64,000 nucleotides of DNA, taken from assembly GCF_046105845.1 (NCBI RefSeq), contig NZ_CP151004.1. One strand, given 5' to 3'. Shown here one piece after another: positions 9,826 through 33,670 of the stretch (positions are counted from its first letter, which is position 1; the number at the start of each line of letters is the position of its first letter). The stretch is from Escherichia coli (GTDB taxonomy: Bacteria > Pseudomonadota > Gammaproteobacteria > Enterobacterales > Enterobacteriaceae). Position numbers and translations under genes: made by a program. The notes beneath the pieces were generated by a model. The model had not been told where the DNA came from and searched no databases. It was given only the letters and a program-made list of their open reading frames with translations.

Positions 9826-10176
9826 TTATGAGTGGAGTTCCCGGAAGGGAATCCCTTTTACCAGGCGGGCAGCGTTAGAGCCAATGCTGCGCCGGGCATG
9901 GTTATCTTGTTGATACATCAGCGTAAACAGTGGCGCTGATGCCGGTAAGTTTTTGTAATGCACAATCAGTTTTTCCTGATCGCAGGCAATGCCAACCAAC
10001 AGGGGAGATTGACGAGCAGCCAGCCAGGCGCTATCGATAACTTCACCTGACGGAATGTGTTGAATGCGAAAGGGAATACCTTCCTCTTCAATGCCAAGAA
10101 GCACCTCATCCCATATAGTGATGCAGTTACCGATCTCCATGACGACGATGGCTGGTGCTCGCTCTTTACTTTCCAT
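9826..10176 (-). CDS. pduH: PduH diol dehydratase reactivase small subunit
   Basis: 116 aa following pduG with 11-nt overlap; conserved position and size. Confidence 0.85.
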
Positions 10177-11998
10177 GAATCGACTCCTTGTGCCAGGCGA
10201 TGAGTAGCCCAGTAGCTACCGCGTTGCGCGGACCTTCGCTACCACGGATATTCCCCCGTCCGGCGACCAATCGATAATGCGCCAATGCATCGGTGACTAA
10301 CTGCGGTACTTCGAAATCCAGCGAAGAACCGCCCACCAGAACGACGAACGGAATATCGCGAATATTTCCTGCAGGGCTTACCTGACGTAGCGCGCGCAGG
10401 GCATTGGTTACGAAGACACGCTCTTTCGCACTGCGACGGACAGCGCGTACTTTTTCCAGCGTCAAATCACCGGGAATAGGCACCAGTTCGTCGGGTTTCA
10501 CTACACAGACGCGGGCAAATACATGGGGGGATAGGGGAGTAGGGAAGAACTGAACGCTGCCATCTTCATGGCGTAAGTGGAACAGGCTTTCTACTTTTGC
10601 CAACGGGTACTTTTTGATTTCTTCTGCCAGATAACGATCATTTAAGCCCAGCTCACGAACGATAATCATCGTTACCATGTCGCCCGCACCCGCAAGGTGA
10701 GTGGCAACAATTTCCCCTTTCTGATTGATGATGGAGGCATCGGTAGAGCCTGCACCTAAGTCCAGAATTGCCAGTGGACGTGTGGTTCCAGGGGTAGTCA
10801 AGGCCCCCTGAATGGCGGCTTCTGCTTCTGCGCCTCCTACCTGAACATCAACATGCAGTTTTTGCTTAATTTCACTGGCGATCATTGCCATTTGCAGACG
10901 GTCGGATTTCACCATAGAGGCAATACCCACAGCCTGTTCCAGTGAAAATTCACCTGCCAGACCGCCGGTTACGCTGACGGGGACAGAGGTATCTATCGCC
11001 AGCAAATCCTGAATAAAAATTTCGTTGCTGGGTTTGTTGGTCAGTTCCGCCATGGTCTGGCGAACATGTTCCAGCATTCCGCCGATGTTGGTGCCTGGTT
11101 CTCCCGTCACGTTTTCCAGTTTTGGGCACTCACCGACCGCTTTCATAATGGCATCGGCACCAGCAGCTACATCAACGCGCGTTGTGCGCCCGGCAGAAAG
11201 CAGTTCGATATTTCCGGCGGGTATCGAACGGGCTTTAACGTCGCCAGAAGGCGTTTTCACTACCACTGCTGAACGGTTGCCGATTAGCGCCCGCGCGACA
11301 GGAACAATATTTTTAGTCTCTTCAGCATTGAGGGCGAAAACGGTGGCAATCCCATACGGGTTAGATAGGGTTTCGATAACTTTCCCGGGAACGGCAACTT
11401 CAATTGCAGCCAGCATGCCGAGCGGAATACGATCGATGTAGAGGACTTCATCAACAATAGGTAGAGGAATTTCCAGGCGGTTATTGACCAGTACGCCATC
11501 GTCGCGTTGCAGAATAACGCCAGTCAGCTGATATCCGGCGCGTACGGAGGCGTTTATCATCGTCGCGATATCGGCAAAATCAAATGCCGATGACACCACC
11601 AGGATGTAAGGTGTGTCCGCCGGGCGTGTTAATAACTCTTGCGGAGTGATGGTGAGCCCTACGCCCAGCCCCACTCCGCCCGGAGTTTTCGGGTTGTGAC
11701 CGATCATGGTTGATTCGGTGATGATGGTTTCAGTGATGGTTTCCATCGCCACATCACCAATGACCGGAGTTGCTTCGTTGATACGAATAAGCGAAATATC
11801 GCTAACATTGATGCCGACTTTTTTCGTTGCCTGTGCGAGCGCCTCCTGAATACCATGGACGTTACGCAACGTACCTTTAATTCCGGTGGTTTCCGCCAGG
11901 GCGCTACTTACGAACGACAACTCTCCAGTTGCACTGAGCGTTGCCAGCGCAATCTCTGTTGATGAGTTACCGATATCAATGCCTGCTATATATCGCAT
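10166..11998 (-). CDS. pduG: PduG diol dehydratase reactivase large subunit
   Basis: 610 aa beginning MRYIAGIDIGNSSTEIALA, the actin-like ATPase fold of DhaF/PduG reactivases. Confidence 0.9.
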   Translation of the reverse strand: MRYIAGIDIGNSSTEIALATLSATGELSFVSSALAETTGIKGTLRNVHGIQEALAQATKKVGINVSDISLIRINEATPVIGDVAMETITETIITESTMIGHNPKTPGGVGLGVGLTITPQELLTRPADTPYILVVSSAFDFADIATMINASVRAGYQLTGVILQRDDGVLVNNRLEIPLPIVDEVLYIDRIPLGMLAAIEVAVPGKVIETLSNPYGIATVFALNAEETKNIVPVARALIGNRSAVVVKTPSGDVKARSIPAGNIELLSAGRTTRVDVAAGADAIMKAVGECPKLENVTGEPGTNIGGMLEHVRQTMAELTNKPSNEIFIQDLLAIDTSVPVSVTGGLAGEFSLEQAVGIASMVKSDRLQMAMIASEIKQKLHVDVQVGGAEAEAAIQGALTTPGTTRPLAILDLGAGSTDASIINQKGEIVATHLAGAGDMVTMIIVRELGLNDRYLAEEIKKYPLAKVESLFHLRHEDGSVQFFPTPLSPHVFARVCVVKPDELVPIPGDLTLEKVRAVRRSAKERVFVTNALRALRQVSPAGNIRDIPFVVLVGGSSLDFEVPQLVTDALAHYRLVAGRGNIRGSEGPRNAVATGLLIAWHKESIHGK

Positions 11999-21926: not shown

Positions 21927-22853
21927 ATGATGCGTCGTGTAAATATTTTTTGGTCATTTGCTCTACTTTTTGCCAGCCATAATAGCCTGGCGGTAACTTA
22001 TCCATTACCTCCAGAGGGTAGCCGTTTAGTGGGACAGTCGCTTACTGTAACTGTTCCTGATCACAATACCCAGCCGCTGGAGACTTTTGCCGCACAATAC
22101 GGGCAAGGGTTAAGTAACATGCTGGAAGCGAATCCGGGCGCTGATGTTTTCTTGCCGAAGTCAGGCTCGCAACTCACCATTCCGCAGCAACTGATTTTGC
22201 CCGCCACTGTTCGTAAAGGGATTGTGATTAACGTCGCTGAGATGCGTCTTTATTACTACCCACCAGACAGTAATACTGTGGAGGTTTTTCCTATTGGTAT
22301 CGGCCAGGCTGGGCGAGAAACCCCGCGTAACTGGGTGACTACCGTTGAACGTAAACAAGAAGCACCAACCTGGACGCCAACGCCGAACACCCGGCGCGAA
22401 TATGCGAAACGAGGGGAGAGTTTGCCCGCATTTGTTCCTGCGGGGCCCGATAATCCCATGGGGCTGTACGCGATTTATATTGGCAGGCTATATGCCATCC
22501 ACGGTACCAATGCCAATTTTGGTATTGGGCTCCGGGTAAGTCAGGGCTGTATTCGTCTGCGCAATGACGATATCAAATATCTGTTTGATAATGTTCCTGT
22601 AGGTACTCGTGTTCAAATTATTGATCAGCCAGTGAAATACACAATGGAACCGGATGGTTCAAAGTGGCTGGAAGTTCATGAGCCGCTGTCGCGCAATCGT
22701 GCAGAATATGATTCTGACCGAAAAGTGCCATTGCCGGTAACCCCATCTTTGCGGGCGTTTATCAACGGGCAAGAAGTTGATGTAAATCGCGCAAATGTTG
22801 CGTTGCAACGTCGATCGGGAATGCCTGTGAATATCAACCGTAACGGATTTTGA
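21927..22853 (+). CDS. ldtA: L,D-transpeptidase LdtA (ErfK)
   Basis: 308 aa with signal peptide; YkuD-type catalytic motif [20 protein letters not shown]. Confidence 0.92.
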
Positions 22854-23014
22854 CATTCAAAACGTCTGGTTTGTCGGTCTGTGTAAGCATTCCGTCATGC
22901 AGAACAGGTTGTTTCGAATCATACAAATGATAATTTTCTTCTCATATGCGCATCTCTTATGAGCATAAACGTTATACTCTTCTGATTTATACATGTTTGC
23001 GGATGACATGATCA

Positions 23015-23992
23015 ATGGAAAAGAGAATGACGAAACAGAATAAAAACAGCCGTTGGCAGGGTTACGATCCTCGTTACATATACTCGCTCGTGGTCAGACG
23101 CTATTTTGCGGATATGAAAACCAAGATTGAGATTGCTGAGGAGCTTGGCGTTTCCCGCTTTAAAGTTGCCAGATTGATCGATGAGGCGATCGAACAGGAT
23201 TACGTGAGGTTTATCTTCCCTAAGCAGCAAGCGATGGATGAAGAAATCGCCAATAATCTACGGAAAAAATTTCATCTGGAAGATGCAATTGTTCTTTCAG
23301 TTGCTGAATCATGGACGACGCAAGAAGAACTCAATCACAAATTGGGTGAAGTCACCGCTGAATATCTTACGCAATCTCTTCATGAAGGTATGAAAGTGGG
23401 GATCGCCTGGGGACGTGTATTATCAAGTACGGTCAGTAAGTTGAGCAAGCTGCCTCCTTTAGACGTTGTGCAGTTATCTGGCGTACATCCGGGGATTGAG
23501 TTTAGTCAAGGGCCAATAGATCTTATTCATAAGATCGCTGCCATTTCGCAGGGAAAAGCGCACCCAATGTACGTGCCGATGTGGGTCGATGACGAAGAGC
23601 TTGCTGCCAGACTGGCAGGTGATCCTGCGGTATTAGATACACAGCAATATTACTCACAGTTGGATGTGGTTATCACCGGGATAGGTGACTGGAAATCAGG
23701 TTCTTCAAGCTTGTGTAAAATATTTCCGGATACCTGGTGCGAAGCTTTGTTTCAACAAGATATCGCTGCGGATGTGTGTATCTCGTTGGTCAGCAGGGAA
23801 GGGAAGATTCTTCATAGTCCTATTGAACGTCTGGGATTTGGCATTTCGACGGATCAACTACAAAAAGCCAAAAAAGTGATTGGTGTCGCCGGAGGGGAAG
23901 AGAAATATGAAGGCATTCTTGCTTCGCTGAAATCTGGACTTTTGAATGTCTTAATTACTGATTTTGATACGGCCATTAAACTTCTGGATTAA
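23015..23992 (+). CDS. SorC/DeoR-type sugar-binding transcriptional regulator
   Basis: 325 aa; N-terminal HTH (KIEIAEELGVSRFKVARLIDEA) and C-terminal sugar-phosphate-binding domain (VGIAWGRVL...VIGVAGGEEK). Confidence 0.8.
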   Translation: MEKRMTKQNKNSRWQGYDPRYIYSLVVRRYFADMKTKIEIAEELGVSRFKVARLIDEAIEQDYVRFIFPKQQAMDEEIANNLRKKFHLEDAIVLSVAESWTTQEELNHKLGEVTAEYLTQSLHEGMKVGIAWGRVLSSTVSKLSKLPPLDVVQLSGVHPGIEFSQGPIDLIHKIAAISQGKAHPMYVPMWVDDEELAARLAGDPAVLDTQQYYSQLDVVITGIGDWKSGSSSLCKIFPDTWCEALFQQDIAADVCISLVSREGKILHSPIERLGFGISTDQLQKAKKVIGVAGGEEKYEGILASLKSGLLNVLITDFDTAIKLLD

Positions 23993-24009
23993 TAGCCGTA
24001 TCTGTGAAG

Positions 24010-24038
24010 AAAGGGCAGTACCGCTGATTCTGCCCTTT
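24010..24038. terminator. Bidirectional hairpin between convergent regulator and PTS IIA gene
   Basis: Inverted repeat aagggcag...ctgccctt followed by tttaattt. Confidence 0.55.
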
Positions 24039-24043
24039 TAATT

Positions 24044-24502
24044 TCAGGATGCTGCGAGCGTATCCTCTACATATTTAGCCACGCGCGTTGCAGGTAAATT
24101 GCGGCAAGTCTCAACAAAGGCGTTATCCTGAAACAGTGTGAATAAACGACGCAATATCGACATATGTTGATCACTGGTGGCAAATGCCAGGTTAAACATA
24201 ATGCTACAATCAACTGTTAAAGCAGCATCTTCCATCTGTCCGAAAGTGACATCATTGGAGAAACGAACAATACTGATGCTGTTTACATTTACCAGCGTGT
24301 AATCGGCATGGGGAATGGCGATACCCTGACCGTTTGCCATCATTAATCCTGTCGGATAGCTTTTTTCACGTTCCAGACAGGCGTCAATGTATTCTGCAGT
24401 GATGTAGCCTTTTTCCAATAATTGCGTACCAGCAAAGGTGATCGCCGTTTGATAGTCGTTGATGCTGTTATCAACATCATTTACCAGAATTTCAAATTTC
24501 AT
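24044..24502 (-). CDS. PTS EIIA component (fructose/mannitol/galactitol type 2 family)
   Basis: 152 aa; conserved histidine context GQGIAIPHADYT typical of EIIA-2 domains. Confidence 0.8.
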   Translation of the reverse strand: MKFEILVNDVDNSINDYQTAITFAGTQLLEKGYITAEYIDACLEREKSYPTGLMMANGQGIAIPHADYTLVNVNSISIVRFSNDVTFGQMEDAALTVDCSIMFNLAFATSDQHMSILRRLFTLFQDNAFVETCRNLPATRVAKYVEDTLAAS

Positions 24503-24512
24503 TGCACACCTG

Positions 24513-24797
24513 TTATTTCAGTATCTCTTCTTTAACTGCAGCGAAAATCTCATCTTCGCCCAGACCAGTCAGTAATCCAGCGCCAACGATGACACGAGTA
24601 GTAATGGCCGGGTTATCGAGTTTGGTCGATGAAACCACCAGGTCATAGCTGTTGAAGGTATCGCTGGTGCATGCCATTAACGAAGATTTATCGACTTGCG
24701 CTTCAATTTTCTCTTCTTTCAGTAAGTCCTGCAGTACAGAGACCATGATGGAAGATGAGGCAATTCCGTTTCCGCAAACTACTAAGATTTTTTTCAT
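24513..24797 (-). CDS. PTS EIIB component (galactitol/lactose-type)
   Basis: 94 aa; N-terminal MKKILVVCGNGIASSS with phosphorylatable cysteine. Confidence 0.8.
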   Translation of the reverse strand: MKKILVVCGNGIASSSIMVSVLQDLLKEEKIEAQVDKSSLMACTSDTFNSYDLVVSSTKLDNPAITTRVIVGAGLLTGLGEDEIFAAVKEEILK

Positions 24798-24820
24798 TTG
24801 ATTATTCCTCTGTAAAAGAT

Positions 24821-26191
24821 TTAAAGCGCTTTTTCTAAATCCGTTTCAATCTGGCGACGTGATTTTTGTTTAATTAAGTATCCAATAGATAACAAAAGGA
24901 TACCTGCCATCACATAGCCAATGATTCCAACATGGCTCAGGGCGGCAAACAGACCAGTAAATGGATTCGCAGACGGGTTAAGCGAAGAGTACATCACGCT
25001 GGCATCCGGGTTTGTACCAAACTTCTGGAAGACTTCGTTGGTAGCCGGTGCCATCCACGATGCAATATACAGACCACCACCGAACAAAATGATCGAGGTC
25101 ACCCAGGTGCGAATAATGTTGCCATTGAAAACAGGCACCATGCAGGCAATGAAAAACACAAACTGAGAGAGGTCACCCAGTGGCATAACGCGGTTGCCGG
25201 GCAAGATCACTGCGAGGATCACAATCACCGGGATCAGTAATAATGCCGGGGCGATAACTGACGGATGACCCACAATCAGGGCAGTGTCCATTCCAACAGT
25301 GATTTGACGATCCGGGAAACGTTTGACCAGTTTTTTGCGTGCCACGTTGGAAAGCGGAACAAGCCCTTCCATCATGATAGAGGTCATACGTGGCAACAGA
25401 AGCATGACTGCAGCCAGATACATCCCTAACTGTAGGCTGGCAATTATGGTGTGGTAGGGGGATTTCCAGCCATAACCACAAAAGCCCAACAAAATACCAA
25501 TAATAAAACCAACCATAGTTGGATCGCCCAGAATGCCAAACCGTTTTTGAATAGTTTCGGCGGTCACATTCAGATTACGGAAGCCTGGGATGCGATCATA
25601 AATCCAGTTGAATGGATAAGCGAAAAGTAAGTAGGTATTGGCAACCGGGTGAGAGATCGCAACACCTTTTGGCAGGTTAAAGAATTTTTCGTTATTTTTA
25701 GCACCGAGATCGGCAGCGATCAGCGCCCAGACATGGAATAGCGCGGCGGTCAATGCGCCATACAGGAAGCTACCAGAATAGACGCCAACAATTGCCCCCA
25801 TTGACGCATTTTGATGAAGGTTGAAAACATCAACGTTAACACAGTCAGTCAGGCGGGCGACCAGCATTGCAATATTTACCGCAACACAGAGGGGAATAAT
25901 GATAGCGCCCATGCTGGAGCCAAATCCCATCACTGCAGTCGCTGCGCCACCAACATCGATGGCACTGAGCGAGGAACCTGTTGCTTCTGCTAATCCGGTG
26001 ACTGCCGGTTGCATTTTTTCCAGCATCAGTTTGATGGTCATGGTTAGCGCAATGAAACCAATGCCGACTTTGATGGCGGAGGAGATACATTCTGAAAGAG
26101 GACGGCCAAGTATCTTCATCAGTACCAGAAAGATGACCGGGATAAATATAAAATTTCCCAGATCGTTTATAAATTGCGTGATCAGTTCCAT
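24821..26191 (-). CDS. PTS EIIC permease, galactitol (GatC) family
   Basis: 456 aa polytopic membrane protein; resembles GatC/SgcC-type EIIC. Confidence 0.8.
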   Translation of the reverse strand: MELITQFINDLGNFIFIPVIFLVLMKILGRPLSECISSAIKVGIGFIALTMTIKLMLEKMQPAVTGLAEATGSSLSAIDVGGAATAVMGFGSSMGAIIIPLCVAVNIAMLVARLTDCVNVDVFNLHQNASMGAIVGVYSGSFLYGALTAALFHVWALIAADLGAKNNEKFFNLPKGVAISHPVANTYLLFAYPFNWIYDRIPGFRNLNVTAETIQKRFGILGDPTMVGFIIGILLGFCGYGWKSPYHTIIASLQLGMYLAAVMLLLPRMTSIMMEGLVPLSNVARKKLVKRFPDRQITVGMDTALIVGHPSVIAPALLLIPVIVILAVILPGNRVMPLGDLSQFVFFIACMVPVFNGNIIRTWVTSIILFGGGLYIASWMAPATNEVFQKFGTNPDASVMYSSLNPSANPFTGLFAALSHVGIIGYVMAGILLLSIGYLIKQKSRRQIETDLEKAL

Positions 26192-26194
26192 ACA

Positions 26195-26731
26195 TTAACC
26201 CTCAGATTTTTCATCATCTGGTCGGAAACCCATATTCCAGCGTACATCAGCGGGCTTAACCAGCAATGCATTATCGTTACGTTCAGCTTCTAGTAAGTTC
26301 TTTTTAGAATTTTCTCTGGCGGTGGTGAAGTCGAATGGGTTATCCAACCATGCATCGACAATCATTTTGCTGTATTCGAGATCGTTGACCCGGCAACCCA
26401 GTCCAATAACTTGTGCGTTATTGCTGAGTCGCGCCCGCTTTGCGGAGTAGGGGTTAGTAACCGCAACGGCTCTTATGCCCCAGTGTTTGTTGATCTGACA
26501 AGTAAAGCCAATGCCAGTCCCACAAATGTAAATTCCCAGACGGCACTCATCGCGTTGAATAATGCCTGCCATTTCGTCGGCTAGACGCGCGAAGTTATTG
26601 ACACCTTGTTCCTTACATGTGACGGGATCGTACACGATCTCCATGTTTTTCTCTTCTATGAGGTATTTTTTTATCTCCTCTTTACGTGCAAAACCTACAT
26701 CATCGCTTGCGATAGCAATCTTCGTTTTCAT
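26195..26731 (-). CDS. RpiB/LacAB-family sugar-phosphate isomerase with C-terminal extension
   Basis: 178 aa; motif GIYICGTGIGFTCQINKHWGIRAVAV resembles the RpiB active-site region; first gene of the minus-strand PTS operon. Confidence 0.75.
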   Translation of the reverse strand: MKTKIAIASDDVGFARKEEIKKYLIEEKNMEIVYDPVTCKEQGVNNFARLADEMAGIIQRDECRLGIYICGTGIGFTCQINKHWGIRAVAVTNPYSAKRARLSNNAQVIGLGCRVNDLEYSKMIVDAWLDNPFDFTTARENSKKNLLEAERNDNALLVKPADVRWNMGFRPDDEKSEG

Positions 26732-27079
26732 TTCATTTTGCCTGTCGTTAAGTAACTAAAGCCAAGTATGCTGTTGGTAAATATTGGTTGTCAATTGAGA
26801 TCTAAATCACAAAATTTATAACTGATTGATTTTTATGATAAAAAAAACCAATAAAAACAAATAAAAAATAAATTAAGCCAATTGAGACAAATTGGGATTG
26901 TACAGTGGCGTTGTAATGAATAATAAAAACTCATTTATTATCAATCGGATATATGGTTTTTGAACTATTGTCTTTATTGGGTTTATTTGTACTTTCCACT
27001 GTTAGTGTTTGTTTTTGTTTGCATCATCTGTGCTATGCTTGGCGTTTTCTAAGATGGGTAATAGATTTCAGGAGGAAGG
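26732..27079. promoter_or_regulatory. AT-rich divergent control region between the minus-strand PTS operon and the DeoR-family regulator gene
   Basis: About 350 bp, very AT-rich, no coding potential, flanked by divergent gene starts. Confidence 0.5.
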
Positions 27080-27835
27080 ATGTATCTGGTTGATGAAAGG
27101 CGAAAGTTAATACTTGAAGACTTAATGTCGGCAGGTACGGTCTATGTCAGTGATCTTGCACGAAAGTATGAAGTAACGTATGAGACCATCAGGAAAGATT
27201 TGACCCATCTTGAACAAAAAGGGCTGCTGATCAAAAGCCATGGTGGGGCGACTTTAAAGCAAAGGGCCATAGAGCATCCCTTTCAGGTCAGGGAAAAAGA
27301 AAATAACTCTTATAAGAAGGCGATAGCTCGTAAAGCGCTTGATTTCATTCCGCCTAATAGTTCGATGATTATCGGTACGGGCAGTACCACTTTTGAGCTG
27401 GCTAACCTGTTATGTATGAAGTCTGGGTTTAAAATCTTCACAGATTCGCTCCCCGTTGCCAGTGTGTTGATTGAATCTGACAATCAGGTTTTTCTCTTTG
27501 GCGGCGAACTGCGTAGAAAGAGTTCCTCAGTGTTTGGGGGGTGGGCGGTATCTATGATCAACGATATACATGTTGATCTCTGTTTCATTGGAACCGACGG
27601 TTTTAGTAACATGACTGGTCCATCGACGCCTTCTTCTTCTGATGCGTTTTTGGATCGCACGATAATTTCGCACTCAGACAAAAAATATATCCTCGGTGAT
27701 TACACCAAGTTTGAGCGCAGCAGTTTGTTTAAGATCTGCGACTGGTCGGAGATCACCGCCCTTATTACCAACGATCATGCCGACAAAGAGGGGATTGCCG
27801 AAGTCGCAAAATACACGTCAGTAATAACCTGTTAG
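27080..27835 (+). CDS. DeoR-family transcriptional regulator
   Basis: 251 aa; N-terminal HTH (VYVSDLARKYEVTYETIRKDLTHLEQKGLL) and C-terminal DeoR sugar-binding domain. Confidence 0.85.
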   Translation: MYLVDERRKLILEDLMSAGTVYVSDLARKYEVTYETIRKDLTHLEQKGLLIKSHGGATLKQRAIEHPFQVREKENNSYKKAIARKALDFIPPNSSMIIGTGSTTFELANLLCMKSGFKIFTDSLPVASVLIESDNQVFLFGGELRRKSSSVFGGWAVSMINDIHVDLCFIGTDGFSNMTGPSTPSSSDAFLDRTIISHSDKKYILGDYTKFERSSLFKICDWSEITALITNDHADKEGIAEVAKYTSVITC

Positions 27836-28010
27836 AACTCACTACGACACGCCTTCTCTCTTCGAATCAGCTTTGCCAAATGTAATCATTTCATAATTAT
27901 CAAGTGAGCATCCATGGCGATGCTTGCTTAGCGCCCTCTATTGAATACATCCTCTACATATTGCCAGTTTCACTTCATTTTTAGCGACGAAATCATTTTT
28001 TGAATCACGA

Positions 28011-28152
28011 TTTGCTCATATGAGCGTAAATAGTGTCGCCATTATGTGATTTTTTGTGATCTGGATTTAATTTCTCAGATCTCGTCATTTGTCCACAGGA
28101 TCGTTGTGCTATAACTGCTCATATGAAGGTTGTTCAATGCTCATGTGAGCAT
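28011..28152. promoter_or_regulatory. Three palindromic operator-like sites upstream of the plus-strand PTS operon
   Basis: tgctcatatgagcg (28013-28026), gctcatatga (28117-28126) and aatgctcatgtgagcatt (28137-28152) share the inverted-repeat core GCTCAT-ATGAGC. Confidence 0.5.
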
Positions 28153-28172
28153 TGGGGGTGAGGGGGAAGGAT

Positions 28173-28616
28173 ATGATATCGATCAGTGTTGCCGATGGTG
28201 CGGGACTACAGAACTACGATGCCGTGCTTGAACATATTTATAACACGCATCGTGAAACGAATACGGTGAAAGAGAGCTGGCTCAATGCTATGCGTAAACG
28301 CGAAGCGGAATATCCGACAGGAATAGAACTGGAAGGTTATTCTATCGCTATACCACACTGTGATAGTGAACATGCGAATCAACCGGCTATTTACATCATC
28401 CGTCTGCCAGACGCAATACCTGTGAACAGGGCTGATGAAGATGGAATATTGTGGGTCAGACTGGTCGTTAATATCATTGTTACGGATCCTGCTGACCAGC
28501 TTCGATTGTTAAAGTCATTATTTAACCATCTCCAAAATGAAGAATTCTACCAAAACTTACTGACACTTCCCGTCGAGGATGCAAAAGCACTTTTTGTATC
28601 CAGGATAATCCAATAG
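28173..28616 (+). CDS. PTS EIIA component (type 2 family)
   Basis: Probable start at second ATG (ggaagga ribosome-binding site); conserved histidine context YSIAIPHCDSE. Confidence 0.8.
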   Translation: MISISVADGAGLQNYDAVLEHIYNTHRETNTVKESWLNAMRKREAEYPTGIELEGYSIAIPHCDSEHANQPAIYIIRLPDAIPVNRADEDGILWVRLVVNIIVTDPADQLRLLKSLFNHLQNEEFYQNLLTLPVEDAKALFVSRIIQ

Positions 28617-28634
28617 TAAAAACTGGAGTTTATT

Positions 28635-28928
28635 ATGATTAATATTCTTGTTGCTTGTGGTAGCGGTGTCGCTACATCTACGCTTGCTGCTGATGAAGTG
28701 AAGTCAGTATGTGCTGAATATGGTATTACGGCATTTAAAATCAACAAATGCAGTATGGCTGAACTTTCTTCTGAGATGGCTCATGCAGATATTGTACTCA
28801 CAACTAATAATTATAAAGGTGATATTGGGAAACCACATATGAGCGTTGCAGGTTTTGTAACGGGTATTAATGAAGGAGCATTACGCAAGAAATTAGGAGA
28901 GTTATTAACTGAATTAGCAAATAGCTAA
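28635..28928 (+). CDS. PTS EIIB component (galactitol-type)
   Basis: 97 aa; MINILVACGSGVATST with phosphorylatable cysteine. Confidence 0.8.
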   Translation: MINILVACGSGVATSTLAADEVKSVCAEYGITAFKINKCSMAELSSEMAHADIVLTTNNYKGDIGKPHMSVAGFVTGINEGALRKKLGELLTELANS

Positions 28929-28948
28929 ACCTGACAGGAATAATAAAA

Positions 28949-30202
28949 ATGGAAATGTTGAAAAATTTAATGGAAACAATCACCGGAATGGGGGCGACTG
29001 CAATACTGCCGCTGGTGATATTTATTTTAGGTCTGGTGTTCAGAATGAAACCAGGTGCCGCGATCAAGTCGGGCATCACCGTCGGTATTGGTTTTATTGG
29101 TTTAGGTTTAGTTGTTGGTTTATTAAATAGTTCATTACAGCCAGCTATCGAGTATTACTCAAAAGTAGGCAGTGGTTTTACGGTTGCAGATATTGGTTGG
29201 CCAGCAGTCGGTGCGGCTGCATGGGTAGCACCTTTTGCCGCATTAGTGATACCAGTTGGCATCGTACTTAACCTGATTCTGGTGCGCCTGAAATTAACCA
29301 AAACGTTAAATGTTGATATCTGGAACTATATGCATTTTTTAGTTCCGGGCGCTCTGGCATATTTTGTGTTCGACAGTTTTATCATCGGCTTCTCTGTCGC
29401 GGTGGCTTTGAGTATTGCGGCCCTGTTTATTGGCGATTTGATTGCGCCCAGATGGCAAAAATATTATGGACTCGAGGGAACAACCTGTACCACGATGATT
29501 CATATCGGCTGGACTCTACCGTTCGCCTGGGTAGTAAATAAAATCATTGATTACATCCCTGGGTTAAATAAGTTAGATGTTGACTTAAACAGTGTGCAAA
29601 AACGCCTGGGTGTCTTTGGTGAACCTGCAATTATCGGTGTTATCGTTGGCGCATTACTCGGAGTTTTAACGAAACAGGCAATTACCACAATTGTTCCCAT
29701 GGCGATGGGGGTTGCTGGTGTAATGGTATTGTTACCTAAAGTGGTCGGTGTGCTGATGGAAGGTCTTAACCCGATTGGGAAAAGTGCCAAAGAAATCATG
29801 CAAAAACAGATGGGTAAAGATGCTGAATTAAACATCGGTATGGATTGTGCACTGGCGTTGGGGGATCCGGCGACGGTCACCGTGACAGTCATTACCATTC
29901 CTTTAACTATGCTATGTGCTCTGGTATTGCCTGATATTAAGATCTTCCCAATTGGCGTATTGATGTCAATTATTTATATGACCACCATGACCGTAATGGC
30001 GAGCAACGGTAACGTGATTCGTTCGATTATCTCGACCTTGTTATTCTGCGTTGTAGTGATGTATTTAGGCGGTTATGTCGCACCAGGGGCAACGCAATTT
30101 TTAGCTGGAGCCGGTGTAGGCTTGCAAGGACAAGGTACTGATTTTGTATTAACCGGCCCGTGGGAAATTTTAACCTATTGGTTGAGCACCGTATTACATT
30201 GA
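28949..30202 (+). CDS. PTS EIIC permease, galactitol (GatC) family
   Basis: 417 aa polytopic membrane protein of GatC/SgcC type. Confidence 0.8.
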   Translation: MEMLKNLMETITGMGATAILPLVIFILGLVFRMKPGAAIKSGITVGIGFIGLGLVVGLLNSSLQPAIEYYSKVGSGFTVADIGWPAVGAAAWVAPFAALVIPVGIVLNLILVRLKLTKTLNVDIWNYMHFLVPGALAYFVFDSFIIGFSVAVALSIAALFIGDLIAPRWQKYYGLEGTTCTTMIHIGWTLPFAWVVNKIIDYIPGLNKLDVDLNSVQKRLGVFGEPAIIGVIVGALLGVLTKQAITTIVPMAMGVAGVMVLLPKVVGVLMEGLNPIGKSAKEIMQKQMGKDAELNIGMDCALALGDPATVTVTVITIPLTMLCALVLPDIKIFPIGVLMSIIYMTTMTVMASNGNVIRSIISTLLFCVVVMYLGGYVAPGATQFLAGAGVGLQGQGTDFVLTGPWEILTYWLSTVLH

Positions 30203-30224
30203 TTTAATAATCTGGAGTTTTAAC

Positions 30225-30869
30225 ATGGCAAAAATATTACCTTCTATATTTGGCGCGGATATTTTACGCCTGAAAGATGAAATTCATTTTCTGGAAGAGG
30301 AACAAACCGAAATATTGCACGTTGATTTAATGGATGGCACTTACGTCAGTAATATTGCCTTTGGCCCAAATCAAATTGCAGCAATGAAAAAAGCCAGTTC
30401 GATGATCTTTGACGTGCATATGATGCTGGCAAATCCTGAGCGACATATTGATGATGTAATCAATACCGGGGCGGAGATGATTTCTGTACATTATGAGTCG
30501 ACGCCACATGTGCATTATATTATTCAAAAAATCAAAAAAGCGGGGCGCAAAGCAGGTGTTGTGCTTAATCCTGGGACACCTGAATCTGTCATCGAGTATT
30601 TATTAGATGATATTGATTATATATTGTTAATGACAATTAATCCGGGGCAACTAGGCCAGACATTTATTCATAAAAGCCTGGAGAAAATCCGTAACACCAA
30701 AAAATTGATATCTGGCAGAGATATTCAAATTGAAGTGGATGGTGGCGTTAATCTTGATAATGTGAAACAAGTTAAAGAAGCGGGGGCTGACCTTATTGTT
30801 GTTGGCGGTGCATTATTTAACAAACAGCCTCATGAAAGTTATCAGGCATTAAAAATCGCTGTTCAGTGA
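30225..30869 (+). CDS. Ribulose-phosphate 3-epimerase family protein (ketose-phosphate 3-epimerase)
   Basis: 214 aa; N-terminal LPSIFGADILRLKDE matches the RPE SILSAD signature region; metal-binding His/Asp residues present. Confidence 0.8.
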   Translation: MAKILPSIFGADILRLKDEIHFLEEEQTEILHVDLMDGTYVSNIAFGPNQIAAMKKASSMIFDVHMMLANPERHIDDVINTGAEMISVHYESTPHVHYIIQKIKKAGRKAGVVLNPGTPESVIEYLLDDIDYILLMTINPGQLGQTFIHKSLEKIRNTKKLISGRDIQIEVDGGVNLDNVKQVKEAGADLIVVGGALFNKQPHESYQALKIAVQ

Positions 30870-30964
30870 TCATAATCTAAAAATTTTACATCCAGCTAAG
30901 TGAGGTTTTCGATTTCATATCGGGAGGAAAACCCCAACTAAAAAGTCTTTAATGGAGAAAAGTA

Positions 30965-31717
30965 ATGAGTAATTTTGCAGGTAAAGTGGTTTTAGTTACC
31001 GGAGGTGCTCACGGTATTGGCAAAGGGATAGCTAAACAATTTGCTGATCGTGGTGCACATACTGTTATTGTTGACTATAACGAAGAGAACGGCAAGGCCA
31101 CTGCAGCAGAGTTAACTTTTGGCGATGTTAAATCGCTGTTTGTTAAAACAGATGTCTCCGATCCACAGGCATTAGTGGATGTACGGGAAAAAGTATTTGC
31201 TACCTTTGGTCGTATTGATGTGTTGATATTAAATGCCGGTGTGGCATTTGCCAATAAAGTTAACAATATTTCTTTTGAGGAATGGAATAAGACTATCGCA
31301 ATTAACTTATCGGGATTATTTAATACCGTTAAGGCATTTTATGATGATTTCCTGACAAATAAGGGATCTATTGTTTATATCTCATCGGGATCAGCGCTTT
31401 CGGGGACTGGGGGCGGCGTGAGCTATCCTGCCAGTAAAGCGGGAGGCGAAGGATTGATTCGTGGTCTGGCAAAAGAGTTAGGACCAAAAGGCGTAAATGT
31501 TAATGCGATTGCTCCCCGCTTAATAGACACCGGAGATATGATGCGGGTCAACTATCCAACACAAGCCGATTTAGACGCTGTCCTGGAAAAAATACCCGTC
31601 CGTCGTCTGGGGACTATCGATGATGTGGCTAACCTGGCAATATTTTTGGCAGATAAAGATAACTCTTATATTCAGGGACAAACCATTTTAATGGATGGTG
31701 GCCGGACTATTGCTTAA
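30965..31717 (+). CDS. Short-chain dehydrogenase/reductase (SDR) family oxidoreductase
   Basis: 250 aa; Rossmann motif VTGGAHGIGKG and catalytic YPASK. Confidence 0.85.
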   Translation: MSNFAGKVVLVTGGAHGIGKGIAKQFADRGAHTVIVDYNEENGKATAAELTFGDVKSLFVKTDVSDPQALVDVREKVFATFGRIDVLILNAGVAFANKVNNISFEEWNKTIAINLSGLFNTVKAFYDDFLTNKGSIVYISSGSALSGTGGGVSYPASKAGGEGLIRGLAKELGPKGVNVNAIAPRLIDTGDMMRVNYPTQADLDAVLEKIPVRRLGTIDDVANLAIFLADKDNSYIQGQTILMDGGRTIA

Positions 31718-31732
31718 AAAGGGAGAGGAAAA

Positions 31733-32293
31733 ATGAGTGTTCAGGAAAATACTCTTAATATTCTGCATGAATTAGAGAGTAATGCACTGAAGATTGACGA
31801 TGCTCAGGCTGCACAGTTTATTTCGCAAATCAGAAATGCCCGGCATATTTTTTTGCAGGGAGCTGGGCGCAGTGGCATTGCTATTCGCGCTTTTGCTAAT
31901 CGCTTGCTGCATTTAGGTTTTTCAGTAAGCGTTGTGGGAGAAATATCATCACCGCATACCCAACCTGGAGATCTATTAATTATTGGGTCAGGCAGTGGTG
32001 AAACTACCAGTTTAAAAAGTCTGGCACAAAAAGCAGTTGATAGCGGAGTAAACGTAGCTCTGGTAACTATGAAAGCAGATTCGACGATCGGTAAATTAGC
32101 TCAATCTGTGTTGGTACTACCAGGAAGTGTGAAAGACGATAACAATCGTGTTGCAGGCGCTTTCGCACAACCAATGGGATCGGCTTTTGAGCAGCTCTGC
32201 TTTATTACTTATGATGCAATTGTTCTGGAGTTGATGTCTGAACTGGGTGAAAGCAGTGCCACAATGTTTACCCGACACGCTGATCTGGAATGA
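31733..32293 (+). CDS. SIS-domain sugar-phosphate isomerase (6-phospho-3-hexuloisomerase-like)
   Basis: 186 aa; SIS-domain features (FLQGAGRSG ... LLIIGSGSGETT) and size typical of PHI-type isomerases. Confidence 0.7.
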   Translation: MSVQENTLNILHELESNALKIDDAQAAQFISQIRNARHIFLQGAGRSGIAIRAFANRLLHLGFSVSVVGEISSPHTQPGDLLIIGSGSGETTSLKSLAQKAVDSGVNVALVTMKADSTIGKLAQSVLVLPGSVKDDNNRVAGAFAQPMGSAFEQLCFITYDAIVLELMSELGESSATMFTRHADLE

Positions 32294-32317
32294 CCAAAGA
32301 GTTGGTAATTAGAAAGT

Positions 32318-32346
32318 AAAAAGCCTGCTTGAAAGCAGGCTTTTTT
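32318..32346. terminator. Bidirectional rho-independent terminator between the SIS gene and tRNA-Asn
   Basis: aaaagcctgcttgaaagcaggctttttt: perfect hairpin flanked by A-run and T-run. Confidence 0.8.
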
Positions 32347-32351
32347 GAATT

Positions 32352-32427
32352 TGGCTCCTCTGACTGGACTCGAACCAGTGACATACGGATTAACAGTCCG
32401 CCGTTCTACCGACTGAACTACAGAGGA
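32352..32427 (-). tRNA. asnV: tRNA-Asn (anticodon GUU)
   Basis: Reverse complement is the 76-nt E. coli tRNA-Asn TCCTCTGTAGTTCAGTCGGTAGAACGGCGGACTGTTAATCCG...GAGGAGCCA. Confidence 0.95.
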
Positions 32428-32752
32428 ATCGTGTGAACGGGGCGCATATTAATGGCAGTGCATGGTGATGTCAAAGGGTGAAATGCATTTTTTTGTTTGT
32501 TTGCTGTCAATTTCAACAAAGTGGTGAGCTTTCAATCTTATTGGTAATGAACCATCGTGGTGCATACCCTCCTTTTATGGGGCAGGGGAACGCGACAGCT
32601 GATAAAAAGAGCCAATGACGAACCTATCATAATCTCTTATTTGACAGTTGGTTAGCTTGTACATCAACGCCAAAATAAAACTGGCAAGCATCTTGCAATC
32701 TGGTTGTAAGTAATGGCGGCACTTGGGCCGATTCTTAAAAACCGGAGGCAAC

Positions 32753-33670
32753 ATGAACTTCAGACGCCTGAAATACTTCGTAAAAATTGTAGATATTGGT
32801 AGCCTGACCCAGGCTGCTGAAGTATTGCATATCGCACAACCAGCGCTCAGTCAGCAGGTTGCCACACTGGAAGGTGAGTTAAATCAACAACTTTTGATTC
32901 GCACAAAACGGGGCGTTACGCCAACTGACGCCGGAAAAATTCTCTATACCCATGCGCGGGCCATTTTACGTCAGTGTGAGCAGGCCCAACTGGCGGTGCA
33001 TAACGTTGGTCAGGCATTATCGGGGCAAGTCTCGATTGGCTTTGCGCCAGGAACCGCTGCGTCATCCATCACCATGCCCTTATTACAGGCGGTTCGCGCT
33101 GAATTCCCGGAGGTCGTTATCTATCTTCATGAAAATAGCGGTGCAGTACTTAACGAAAAACTGATAAATCATCAACTCGATATGGCGGTGATTTATGAGC
33201 ATTCCCCTGTGGCTGGTGTATCCAGCCAGGCTTTGCTGAAAGAAGATCTTTTCCTGGTAGGAACTCAAGATTGCCCGGGGCAAAGCGTTGATGTTAATGC
33301 TATTGCGCAAATGAACCTCTTTCTCCCCAGTGATTACAGTGCTATTAGACTTCGTGTTGATGAGGCTTTTTCCCTACGGCGACTCACGGCAAAAGTCATT
33401 GGTGAAATTGAGTCTATTGCCACGCTTACCGCAGCGATTGCTAGCGGCATGGGCGTTGCAGTATTACCCGAATCGGCCGCGCGTTCGTTATGTGGCGCAG
33501 TAAATGGTTGGATGTCACGCATTACCACTCCTTCCATGAGTCTCTCTTTGTCATTAAATTTACCCGCCAGAGCGAACTTATCGCCACAGGCACAGGCAGT
33601 GAAAGAGTTGTTAATGTCAGTGATGAGTTCTCCAGTGATGGAAAAAAGGCAGTGGCAATTGGTGAGCTAA
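32753..33670 (+). CDS. nac: Nitrogen assimilation control protein Nac (LysR family)
   Basis: Internal start MNFRRLKYFVKIVDIGSLTQAAEVLHIAQPALSQQV (LysR HTH); 305 aa. Confidence 0.92.
   Translation: MNFRRLKYFVKIVDIGSLTQAAEVLHIAQPALSQQVATLEGELNQQLLIRTKRGVTPTDAGKILYTHARAILRQCEQAQLAVHNVGQALSGQVSIGFAPGTAASSITMPLLQAVRAEFPEVVIYLHENSGAVLNEKLINHQLDMAVIYEHSPVAGVSSQALLKEDLFLVGTQDCPGQSVDVNAIAQMNLFLPSDYSAIRLRVDEAFSLRRLTAKVIGEIESIATLTAAIASGMGVAVLPESAARSLCGAVNGWMSRITTPSMSLSLSLNLPARANLSPQAQAVKELLMSVMSSPVMEKRQWQLVS

Follow-up and report, generated by a model that had tools for sequence, protein, structure and literature searches.

The question raised by this locus is which regulator controls which of two PTS gene sets. 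In a 64,000-nucleotide stretch of Escherichia coli DNA (referred to here as the window), a DeoR-type regulator gene (deoR) stands between a minus-strand cluster (cluster 1), from which it diverges, and a second, co-oriented cluster (cluster 2). An earlier note had described the very AT-rich interval of about 350 bp between cluster 1 and deoR, with genes starting back to back on either side, as a single divergent control region shared by both clusters. The size and composition given there are correct, the gap between the start of the first gene of cluster 1 (an rpiB-like gene, 26731) and that of deoR (27080) measuring exactly 348 bp (26732-27079) with a GC content of 29.6%. Just 0.66% of 348-bp windows are as AT-rich, and the start codons of both genes agree with alignments of their homologs. 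Back-to-back genes some 350 bp apart are unremarkable per se; it is the motif content of the gap that exceeds chance. From this content and its distribution in other genomes, it is quite likely that the gap is an ordinary bipartite divergent control region of deoR and cluster 1, with cluster 2 having its own promoter and a SorC-type regulator.

The computed results are gene order, conservation at the sequence level and where motifs occur and co-occur, whereas the pairing of protein and motif, the direction of control, the start sites of transcription and the inducers are inferred by us. About a dozen genomic contexts were inspected and order conservation was taken from a scan of one genome per species. 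Two loci were left out as uninformative, namely that of Proteus (L005), which is cut 47 bp upstream of deoR, and that of Rosenbergiella (L010), where a deoR homolog is reduced to its C-terminal 112 codons (10001-10336) and no PTS genes are near. The gap alignment (A1) comprises eight loci, seven from Enterobacterales and one from Coriobacteriia.

The window is approximately 98% identical to E. coli chromosomes. The best match of any of its regions to the listed E. coli genomes is approximately 98.6% identity, which suggests a somewhat divergent lineage. Both clusters are located on an accessory island of approximately 9.5 kb between ldtA (erfK) and a tRNA-Asn gene, which was found in 233 of 5426 complete E. 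coli genomes (4.3%). The GC content of the island is 42.7%, compared to 47.2% for the window, 50.2% for the left flank and 46.3% for the right flank. The island adjoins the 3′ side of the tRNA-Asn gene (32355-32427, minus strand). No integrase gene is present among its annotated genes, and at the edges examined (22854-23014 and 32281-32440) no repeat of at least 9 nt joins its left edge to the tRNA-Asn side as an integration scar. Between hxlB, the last gene of cluster 2, and the tRNA-Asn gene (32289-32351) there is a GC-rich hairpin (AAAAAGCCTGCTTGAAAGCAGGCTTTTTT) flanked by T and A runs, which resembles a bidirectional terminator and has a sub-threshold Rfam match to STnc370 (33.6 bits versus 54). 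With an Rfam scan of 22000-33000 (E ≤1), this match and the tRNA-Asn gene were the sole hits, both outside the gap, in which no known RNA element was identified. Upstream of the island (1-22853), the annotation of the matching strain A42 gives pdu/pocR and cobUST genes and a cobalamin riboswitch. The features of the island are given in Table 1.

Table 1. Genes and predicted control elements of the island (positions are those of the window, except in the last row).
Feature	Position	Strand	Basis or remark
Degenerate palindrome copies upstream of SorC gene	22940-22951, 22953-22964		2 mismatches each
SorC-family regulator gene	23015-23992	+	Convergent with cluster 1 end
Cluster 1 operon	24044-26731	-	ORFs, Pfam, NCBIfam
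EIIA gene, cluster 1	24044-24502	-	
EIIB gene, cluster 1	24513-24797	-	
Gat-family EIIC gene, cluster 1	24821-26191	-	
RpiB/LacAB-family isomerase gene	26195-26731	-	First of cluster 1; Pfam LacAB_rpiB 1.3e-33
Predicted leftward sigma-70 promoter	26765-26794	-	-35 TTGACA 26794-26789, 18-nt spacer, -10 CATACT 26770-26765; best consensus match in region, 10/12
O1, tandem repeat ACCAAT-ATTT-ACCAAC	26773-26788	-	Fills promoter spacer; predicted main DeoR-type operator
CRP-like site TGAGATCTAAATCACA	26796-26811	.	Abuts -35; one mismatch to TGTGAN6TCACA
O2 and phased pair	26847-26892	+	O2 ACCAATAAAAACAAAT 26847-26862, pair GCCAATTGAGACAAAT 26877-26892; opposite orientation to O1
AT-rich spacer	26893-27002	.	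No conserved columns between genera; alignment A1
O3-like degenerate pair GCAAAC-AAAA-ACAAAC (GTTTGTTTTTGTTTGC on other strand)	27007-27022	-	Over deoR -35 region; 10-bp phase as O1/O2
Predicted extended -10 of deoR promoter, TGcTATGCT within TGTGCTATGCT	27031-27039	+	Read from sequence
DeoR/GlpR-family regulator gene	27080-27835	+	Shine-Dalgarno AGGAGG 27070-27075
Cluster 2 control region	27836-28172	+	All elements conserved in six to seven genera
Palindromes GCTCAYRTGAGC	28014-28025, 28117-28128 (2 mismatches), 28139-28150		Degenerate copy 27898-27909
CRP-like site, cluster 2 region	28055-28070		
Extended -10 TGcTATAAC, cluster 2 region	28107-28115	+	
Cluster 2 operon	28173-32293	+	EIIA, EIIB, Gat-family EIIC, Rpe-family epimerase, SDR dehydrogenase, HxlB-type SIS isomerase
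SIS/HxlB-like gene in compared loci	L003 6363-6890; L007 5251-5778; L022 4732-5253		

Cluster 1 was placed correctly by the earlier note as a minus-strand operon starting at the gap, but its first gene encodes a sugar-phosphate isomerase and not a PTS component. Homologs of the cluster (72-96% identity) have the same gene order in 11 other loci. In Citrobacter, K. oxytoca, a Klebsiella plasmid, E. faecalis, S. suis, Paenibacillus and Thermophilibacter, and hence in most of the other loci, cluster 1 terminates with an SIS/HxlB-like isomerase gene. This gene is absent from the E. coli cluster (23993-24043), where the SorC-like and EIIA genes are just 51 bp apart, and the E. coli cluster 1 may therefore use the hxlB of cluster 2 in place of an SIS gene of its own.

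The gene divergent from cluster 1 encodes a member of the DeoR/GlpR family by its domain content, with HTH_DeoR (PF08220, 1.5e-13) and DeoRC (PF00455, 9.1e-42) domains both above their gathering scores. AgaR is its nearest NCBIfam family, but the score of 170.7 bits is below the cutoff of 260 and the other equivalogs score lower, so that it corresponds to no named equivalog (AgaR, SrlR, GlpR). The recognition-helix segment V-x-YETIRKDL is kept in seven homologs of three phyla, x being T in six and S in one.

With alignment A1, two conserved blocks are apparent in the gap, one on the rpiB side and one on the deoR side, while the middle is unconserved and variable in length. On the rpiB side, the -35 TTGACA of the predicted leftward promoter together with ATACTTGGCTT is unchanged in all seven Enterobacterales copies, whereas the predicted -10 is weak. 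The tandem repeat O1 is the sole exact ACCAAYN4ACCAAY in the window. Its equivalent is found with no or one mismatch at the same place by TTGAC[A/T] in six Enterobacterales genera, Gilliamella, Paenibacillus, E. faecalis and S. suis, and altogether 11 loci have an ACCAAY-N4-ACCAAY pair between their -35 and -10. The second pair, O2, lies at a start-to-start distance of 74 bp from O1 in E. coli, Entomohabitans, Citrobacter, E. wuhouensis, K. oxytoca and Gilliamella and of 75 bp in Paenibacillus, and in Providencia a pair with three mismatches was read by eye 74 bp from O1. The CRP-like site retains TGAGA-N6-TCACA in every Enterobacterales copy, is a perfect TGTGATCAAGATCACA at the same place in Gilliamella and is missing in Firmicutes, which is the distribution expected of a CRP site. 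It lies approximately 12 bp from the centre of the -35, which corresponds to neither the classical class I nor the class II position, the start site being only a predicted one.

The ACCAAY pairs of the gap are more numerous than its base composition would provide. In dinucleotide-preserving shuffles of the gap, 0.23 matches to ACCAAYN4ACCAAY with up to two mismatches are expected against three observed (three being reached in 0.35% of shuffles), and 0.016 with up to one mismatch against two observed. The fraction of shuffles reaching the observed count is 0.0035 or lower, for a hexamer of little information content in AT-rich DNA and with the further pairs O2′ and O3 having two to four mismatches. 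It is very unlikely that the gap has no specific operators and that its repeats are a side effect of AT-rich DNA that was acquired horizontally and is silenced by nucleoid proteins (H-NS, for instance): the low GC of the gap relative to the island and both flanks and the rarity of the island in E. coli would fit such an origin, but the repeat pairs hold their position, orientation and 74-bp spacing across phyla beside a spacer that is not conserved, and local shuffles seldom reproduce them. H-NS could bind here on top of specific control. The small ORFs of the gap (up to 46 aa) are sited in the unconserved spacer or overlap the promoters.

The deoR-side block contains a predicted extended -10, with TGTGCTATGMT conserved in alignment A1. 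At the degenerate O3-like pair, the block GTTTGTTTTAGTTTGC is conserved in Enterobacterales, with ACCAATAAAAGCAAAT at this place in Providencia, and S. suis has an ACCAAY-type pair with two mismatches immediately upstream of its deoR. The O3-like pair suggests autoregulation of deoR, the evidence for it being weaker than that for O1 and O2. The distance from O2 to O3 varies from 160 to 194 bp across genera without helical phasing, and the two halves of the gap therefore look like independent promoter modules. The gap has the features of a repressor-type divergent region, with conserved repeats overlapping the predicted core promoter and a regulator that diverges from its predicted target in distant genomes, and the description of the gap in the earlier note as a divergent control region was sound.

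The assignment of deoR to cluster 2, as made previously, does not hold up in the comparison. The gene is divergent from rpiB-PTS in all 12 loci with a visible upstream side, which belong to three phyla. In five distant genomes, those of Enterococcus faecalis, Gilliamella, Streptococcus suis, Paenibacillus and Thermophilibacter, a DeoR homolog of 62-74% identity is encoded divergently from rpiB-IIC-IIB-IIA-SIS, the gap being 218-288 bp in the first four (DeoR 66-74% identity). No cluster-2 genes were found in the stretch examined of three of these (S. suis, Paenibacillus and Thermophilibacter). Thermophilibacter provencensis (Coriobacteriia), whose DeoR is 62% identical, is also without the SorC gene, and its gap contains three exact ACCAAY pairs. 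The layout TTGAC[A/T]-[ACCAAY-N4-ACCAAY]-(-10) on the rpiB-coding strand is common to Enterobacterales, Gilliamella and the three Firmicutes, and most of the distant gaps have a second ACCAAY pair upstream. The DeoR gene appears to belong to cluster 1, because its pairing with rpiB-PTS and the repeats both occur in genomes without cluster-2 genes nearby. Most likely, the ACCAAY repeats are the target of the DeoR-type protein and cluster 1 is under its control, as its own gene probably is.

Cluster 2 does not directly follow deoR, as 337 bp of non-coding DNA (27836-28172) lie between. In this region are an extended -10, a CRP-like site and four copies of the palindrome GCTCAYRTGAGC. Two of the copies are exact, against an expectation of 0.000, a number never reached in 2000 local shuffles. 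The palindrome appears to be connected with the SorC-family gene on the other side of cluster 1, approximately 4 kb away. The product of this gene has both features of the SorC family, namely PF04198 (Sugar-bind), as recorded for a near-identical database protein, and an N-terminal HTH whose residues are conserved. Its best NCBIfam scores are 131 against a cutoff of 420 for the B. subtilis-type DeoR and 77 against 486 for LsrR, with the alignment spanning residues 28-324. Upstream of the gene, the half-site TGATGAGC beside TATACT is conserved in other genera (alignment A3). SorC homologs of 61-62% identity in Glaesserella and Rouxiella lie beside cluster-2-like operons (EIIA-EIIB-EIIC-rpe-dehydrogenase-SIS) without a DeoR gene or cluster 1, while a homolog of 45% identity has SIS, kinase, ABC transporter and rpe genes as neighbours. 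The palindrome is found immediately upstream of the operon in all three loci, and in Glaesserella and Rouxiella it occurs as a pair 22 bp apart, as do the copies at 28117 and 28139 in E. coli. Binding of two half-operators as tetramers is an established mode of SorC-family repressors (PMC11229326). The palindrome most likely belongs to the SorC-type regulator, which would be the cognate regulator of cluster 2, because it tracks SorC homologs in genomes without DeoR, is paired at 22 bp and fits this two-half-operator mode (PMC11229326).

The two motifs are cleanly partitioned, which is the main argument against one shared control region. At up to two mismatches, ACCAAY pairs were found in six genera solely between rpiB and deoR, with none in the region corresponding to 27836-28172. 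The palindromes were found at the same threshold upstream of cluster 2 in all six genera, with none between rpiB and deoR in any of them; E. coli alone also has them upstream of the SorC gene. It is improbable, then, that a single divergent region co-regulates both PTS clusters through DeoR, with cluster 2 carried on the deoR transcript or bound by the same repressor. Such a design does exist in nature, since Gilliamella has the genes of both clusters combined in one operon that diverges from deoR. In Enterobacterales, the clusters are without exception neighbours, and deoR and cluster 2 are co-oriented with no intrinsic-terminator-like site between. Downstream of deoR, a consensus scan found no terminator and an 11-bp hairpin (27902-27929) has no U-tract (fold z-score 0.04), so that read-through into cluster 2 is possible and may couple the clusters. 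Against this design in E. coli stand the conserved promoter of cluster 2 with its different operator type and no ACCAAY pairs, palindromes that go with SorC homologs where DeoR is absent, and DeoR homologs that accompany cluster 1 where cluster-2 genes are absent nearby. The claim that both clusters share the gap was not supported.

We also consider it doubtful that DeoR and SorC cross-regulate the clusters as one regulon with separate promoters, whether through sites too degenerate to detect in both regions or by sensing the same or successive pathway intermediates. Strict co-inheritance in Enterobacterales and on plasmids, the possible reliance of the E. coli cluster 1 on the hxlB of cluster 2 and the CRP-like sites at both promoters would be consistent with this. 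However, there are no cross-type sites at up to two mismatches in six genera, and each regulator-operon pair is found alone in other genomes.

With separate control of the two clusters as the preferred reading, the following mechanism is proposed. The predicted sigma-70 promoter (TTGACA, 18 nt, CATACT) would drive cluster 1 leftward, with the DeoR-type protein binding the 10-bp-phased ACCAAY-N4-ACCAAY pairs, O1 in the promoter spacer and O2 74 bp upstream in the opposite orientation. At approximately seven helical turns, this distance would permit the protein to bind cooperatively or to form a loop. The bound protein would block RNA polymerase until its C-terminal sensor domain is occupied by a sugar phosphate that the PTS has produced, and catabolite control would be added through the CRP-like site located between O1 and O2. 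Members of the DeoR family are also capable of activating transcription, and the sign of control at cluster 1 therefore stays a prediction. The extended -10 promoter would drive deoR rightward, with the degenerate pair over its -35 region giving autorepression, and the approximately 110 bp between the two promoter modules would be an unconserved spacer. Cluster 2 would be driven from 27836-28172, where two GCTCAYRTGAGC palindromes 22 bp apart, spanning the predicted transcript start, would be bound by the SorC-family regulator encoded at 23015-23992.

Separate promoters do not make the clusters unrelated, and the view that they are not independent insertions was upheld. The order SorC-like gene, cluster 1, deoR, cluster 2 is complete in Entomohabitans, Citrobacter, Enterobacter wuhouensis, Klebsiella oxytoca and Providencia and also on a Klebsiella IncF plasmid, and the gene sets are fused into one operon in Gilliamella. 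A functional link between the clusters is likely, because both are inherited together as a module of approximately 9.5 kb, and partial co-expression is plausible, though not by way of a shared divergent promoter region. Shared regulation may come from the predicted CRP sites at both promoters and from read-through of deoR. A wider reading of the island can be offered only tentatively. It would be a two-regulator, two-transporter catabolic module for a pair of rare sugars or polyols, in which a DeoR/rpiB-PTS unit, apparently exchanged between Firmicutes and Proteobacteria, is nested between a SorC-type regulator and its target operon. In E. coli, cluster 1, its SIS gene lost, may depend metabolically on cluster 2, the coupling being by pathway and not by a shared promoter, and ACCAAY-N4-ACCAAY and GCTCAYRTGAGC would define the regulons of two uncharacterised regulator subfamilies.

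The E. coli K-12 sgc and gat loci have a DeoR-type regulator and a Gat-family PTS, with sgc also having an Rpe-like epimerase. The general gene content is similar here (Gat-family EIIA/B/C, DeoR-family regulator, Rpe-family epimerase), but unlike sgc and gat the present genes form an accessory island that encodes two sets of PTS components, two regulators from different families and enzymes of the RpiB, SDR and HxlB types. Like AgaR, SrlR and GatR of E. coli and FruR of Bacillota, the DeoR-type protein has the HTH_DeoR and DeoRC layout and is encoded beside a PTS catabolic operon. AgaR is the closest family, yet at 171 bits versus the cutoff of 260 the protein is not its equivalog. FruR of Bacillota, also of the DeoR family, binds 10-bp repeats arrayed across the -35 (PMC11906611); phasing and position are alike here, whereas the repeat unit is ACCAAY and not TGAWWGWTTT as with FruR (PMC11906611). 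With regard to the second regulator, PF04198 is common to SorC-family repressors such as B. subtilis DeoR, CggR, E. coli LsrR and K. pneumoniae SorC, and the 22-bp palindrome pair fits a tetramer on two half-operators (PMC11229326). The scores are far under the equivalog cutoffs, GCTCAYRTGAGC is unlike the operator of B. subtilis DeoR (PMC11229326) and, in a difference from other SorC-family systems, another regulator-operon module lies between the gene and the operon that it is predicted to control.

Literature searches by gene content and motif strings returned no functional study of the island and no account of its regulation, and neither the two ACCAAY-pair test sequences nor the palindrome were reported as operators in the literature searched. 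One paper merely lists the island genes, which STEC O156:H25 and O182:H25 possess and O156:H8 lacks. The new content of the present analysis appears limited to a pair of predicted operator motifs and a corrected regulator-operon assignment, and is otherwise routine bacterial gene regulation. The correction concerns the wiring of an accessory sugar-utilisation island that occurs in approximately 4% of complete E. coli genomes, several other Enterobacterales and conjugative Klebsiella plasmids. Of its two regulators, the one encoded between the transport operons most likely controls the operon behind it and not that ahead, for which control most likely comes from the regulator 4 kb away. For substrate identification, the analysis provides two candidate operator motifs and the predicted promoter positions.

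A number of further features were noted in the compared loci. The conjugative IncF plasmid of K. pneumoniae NZ_CP054998.1 (L022) has the complete SorC-cluster 1-DeoR-cluster 2 module beside a copy of ISKpn26. It is the one plasmid inspected among 38 Klebsiella or Enterobacter plasmids that match the rpiB-side gap block. In Gilliamella (L019, 1367-7712), the fused operon of cluster 1 and cluster 2 genes (EIIB, EIIC, rpe, SDR, SIS) has nine genes, with no SorC gene and no palindrome at the locus. In E. faecalis (L018, 1-14724), Gat-family PTS operons with rpe or SIS genes, under PRD/Mga-type regulators, lie to either side of the deoR/cluster-1 module, and one EIIC of a flanking operon is 74% identical to the cluster 2 EIIC of E. 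coli. Providencia vermicola (L006, 10757-11253) is without the cluster 2 EIIA gene; its deoR-EIIB gap is 497 bp and the palindromes are kept. The copy in Enterobacter sp. EA-1 (L009) has many broken reading frames, due to either assembly errors or decay.

Within the gap of the window itself, a repeat which we take to resemble AgaR-type sites (TTTCATTTCATTTT, 26726-26739, recurring at 27968) was considered and dropped, as it overlaps the rpiB start codon and is unconserved in other genera. The gap of E. coli strain VTB97074v contains an IS5 insertion (L023, 1800-3005) at a duplicated CTAA target corresponding to 26755-26758, that is between the predicted -10 and the rpiB-like start codon, and cluster 1 is thereby severed from its predicted promoter, O1 and the CRP-like site.
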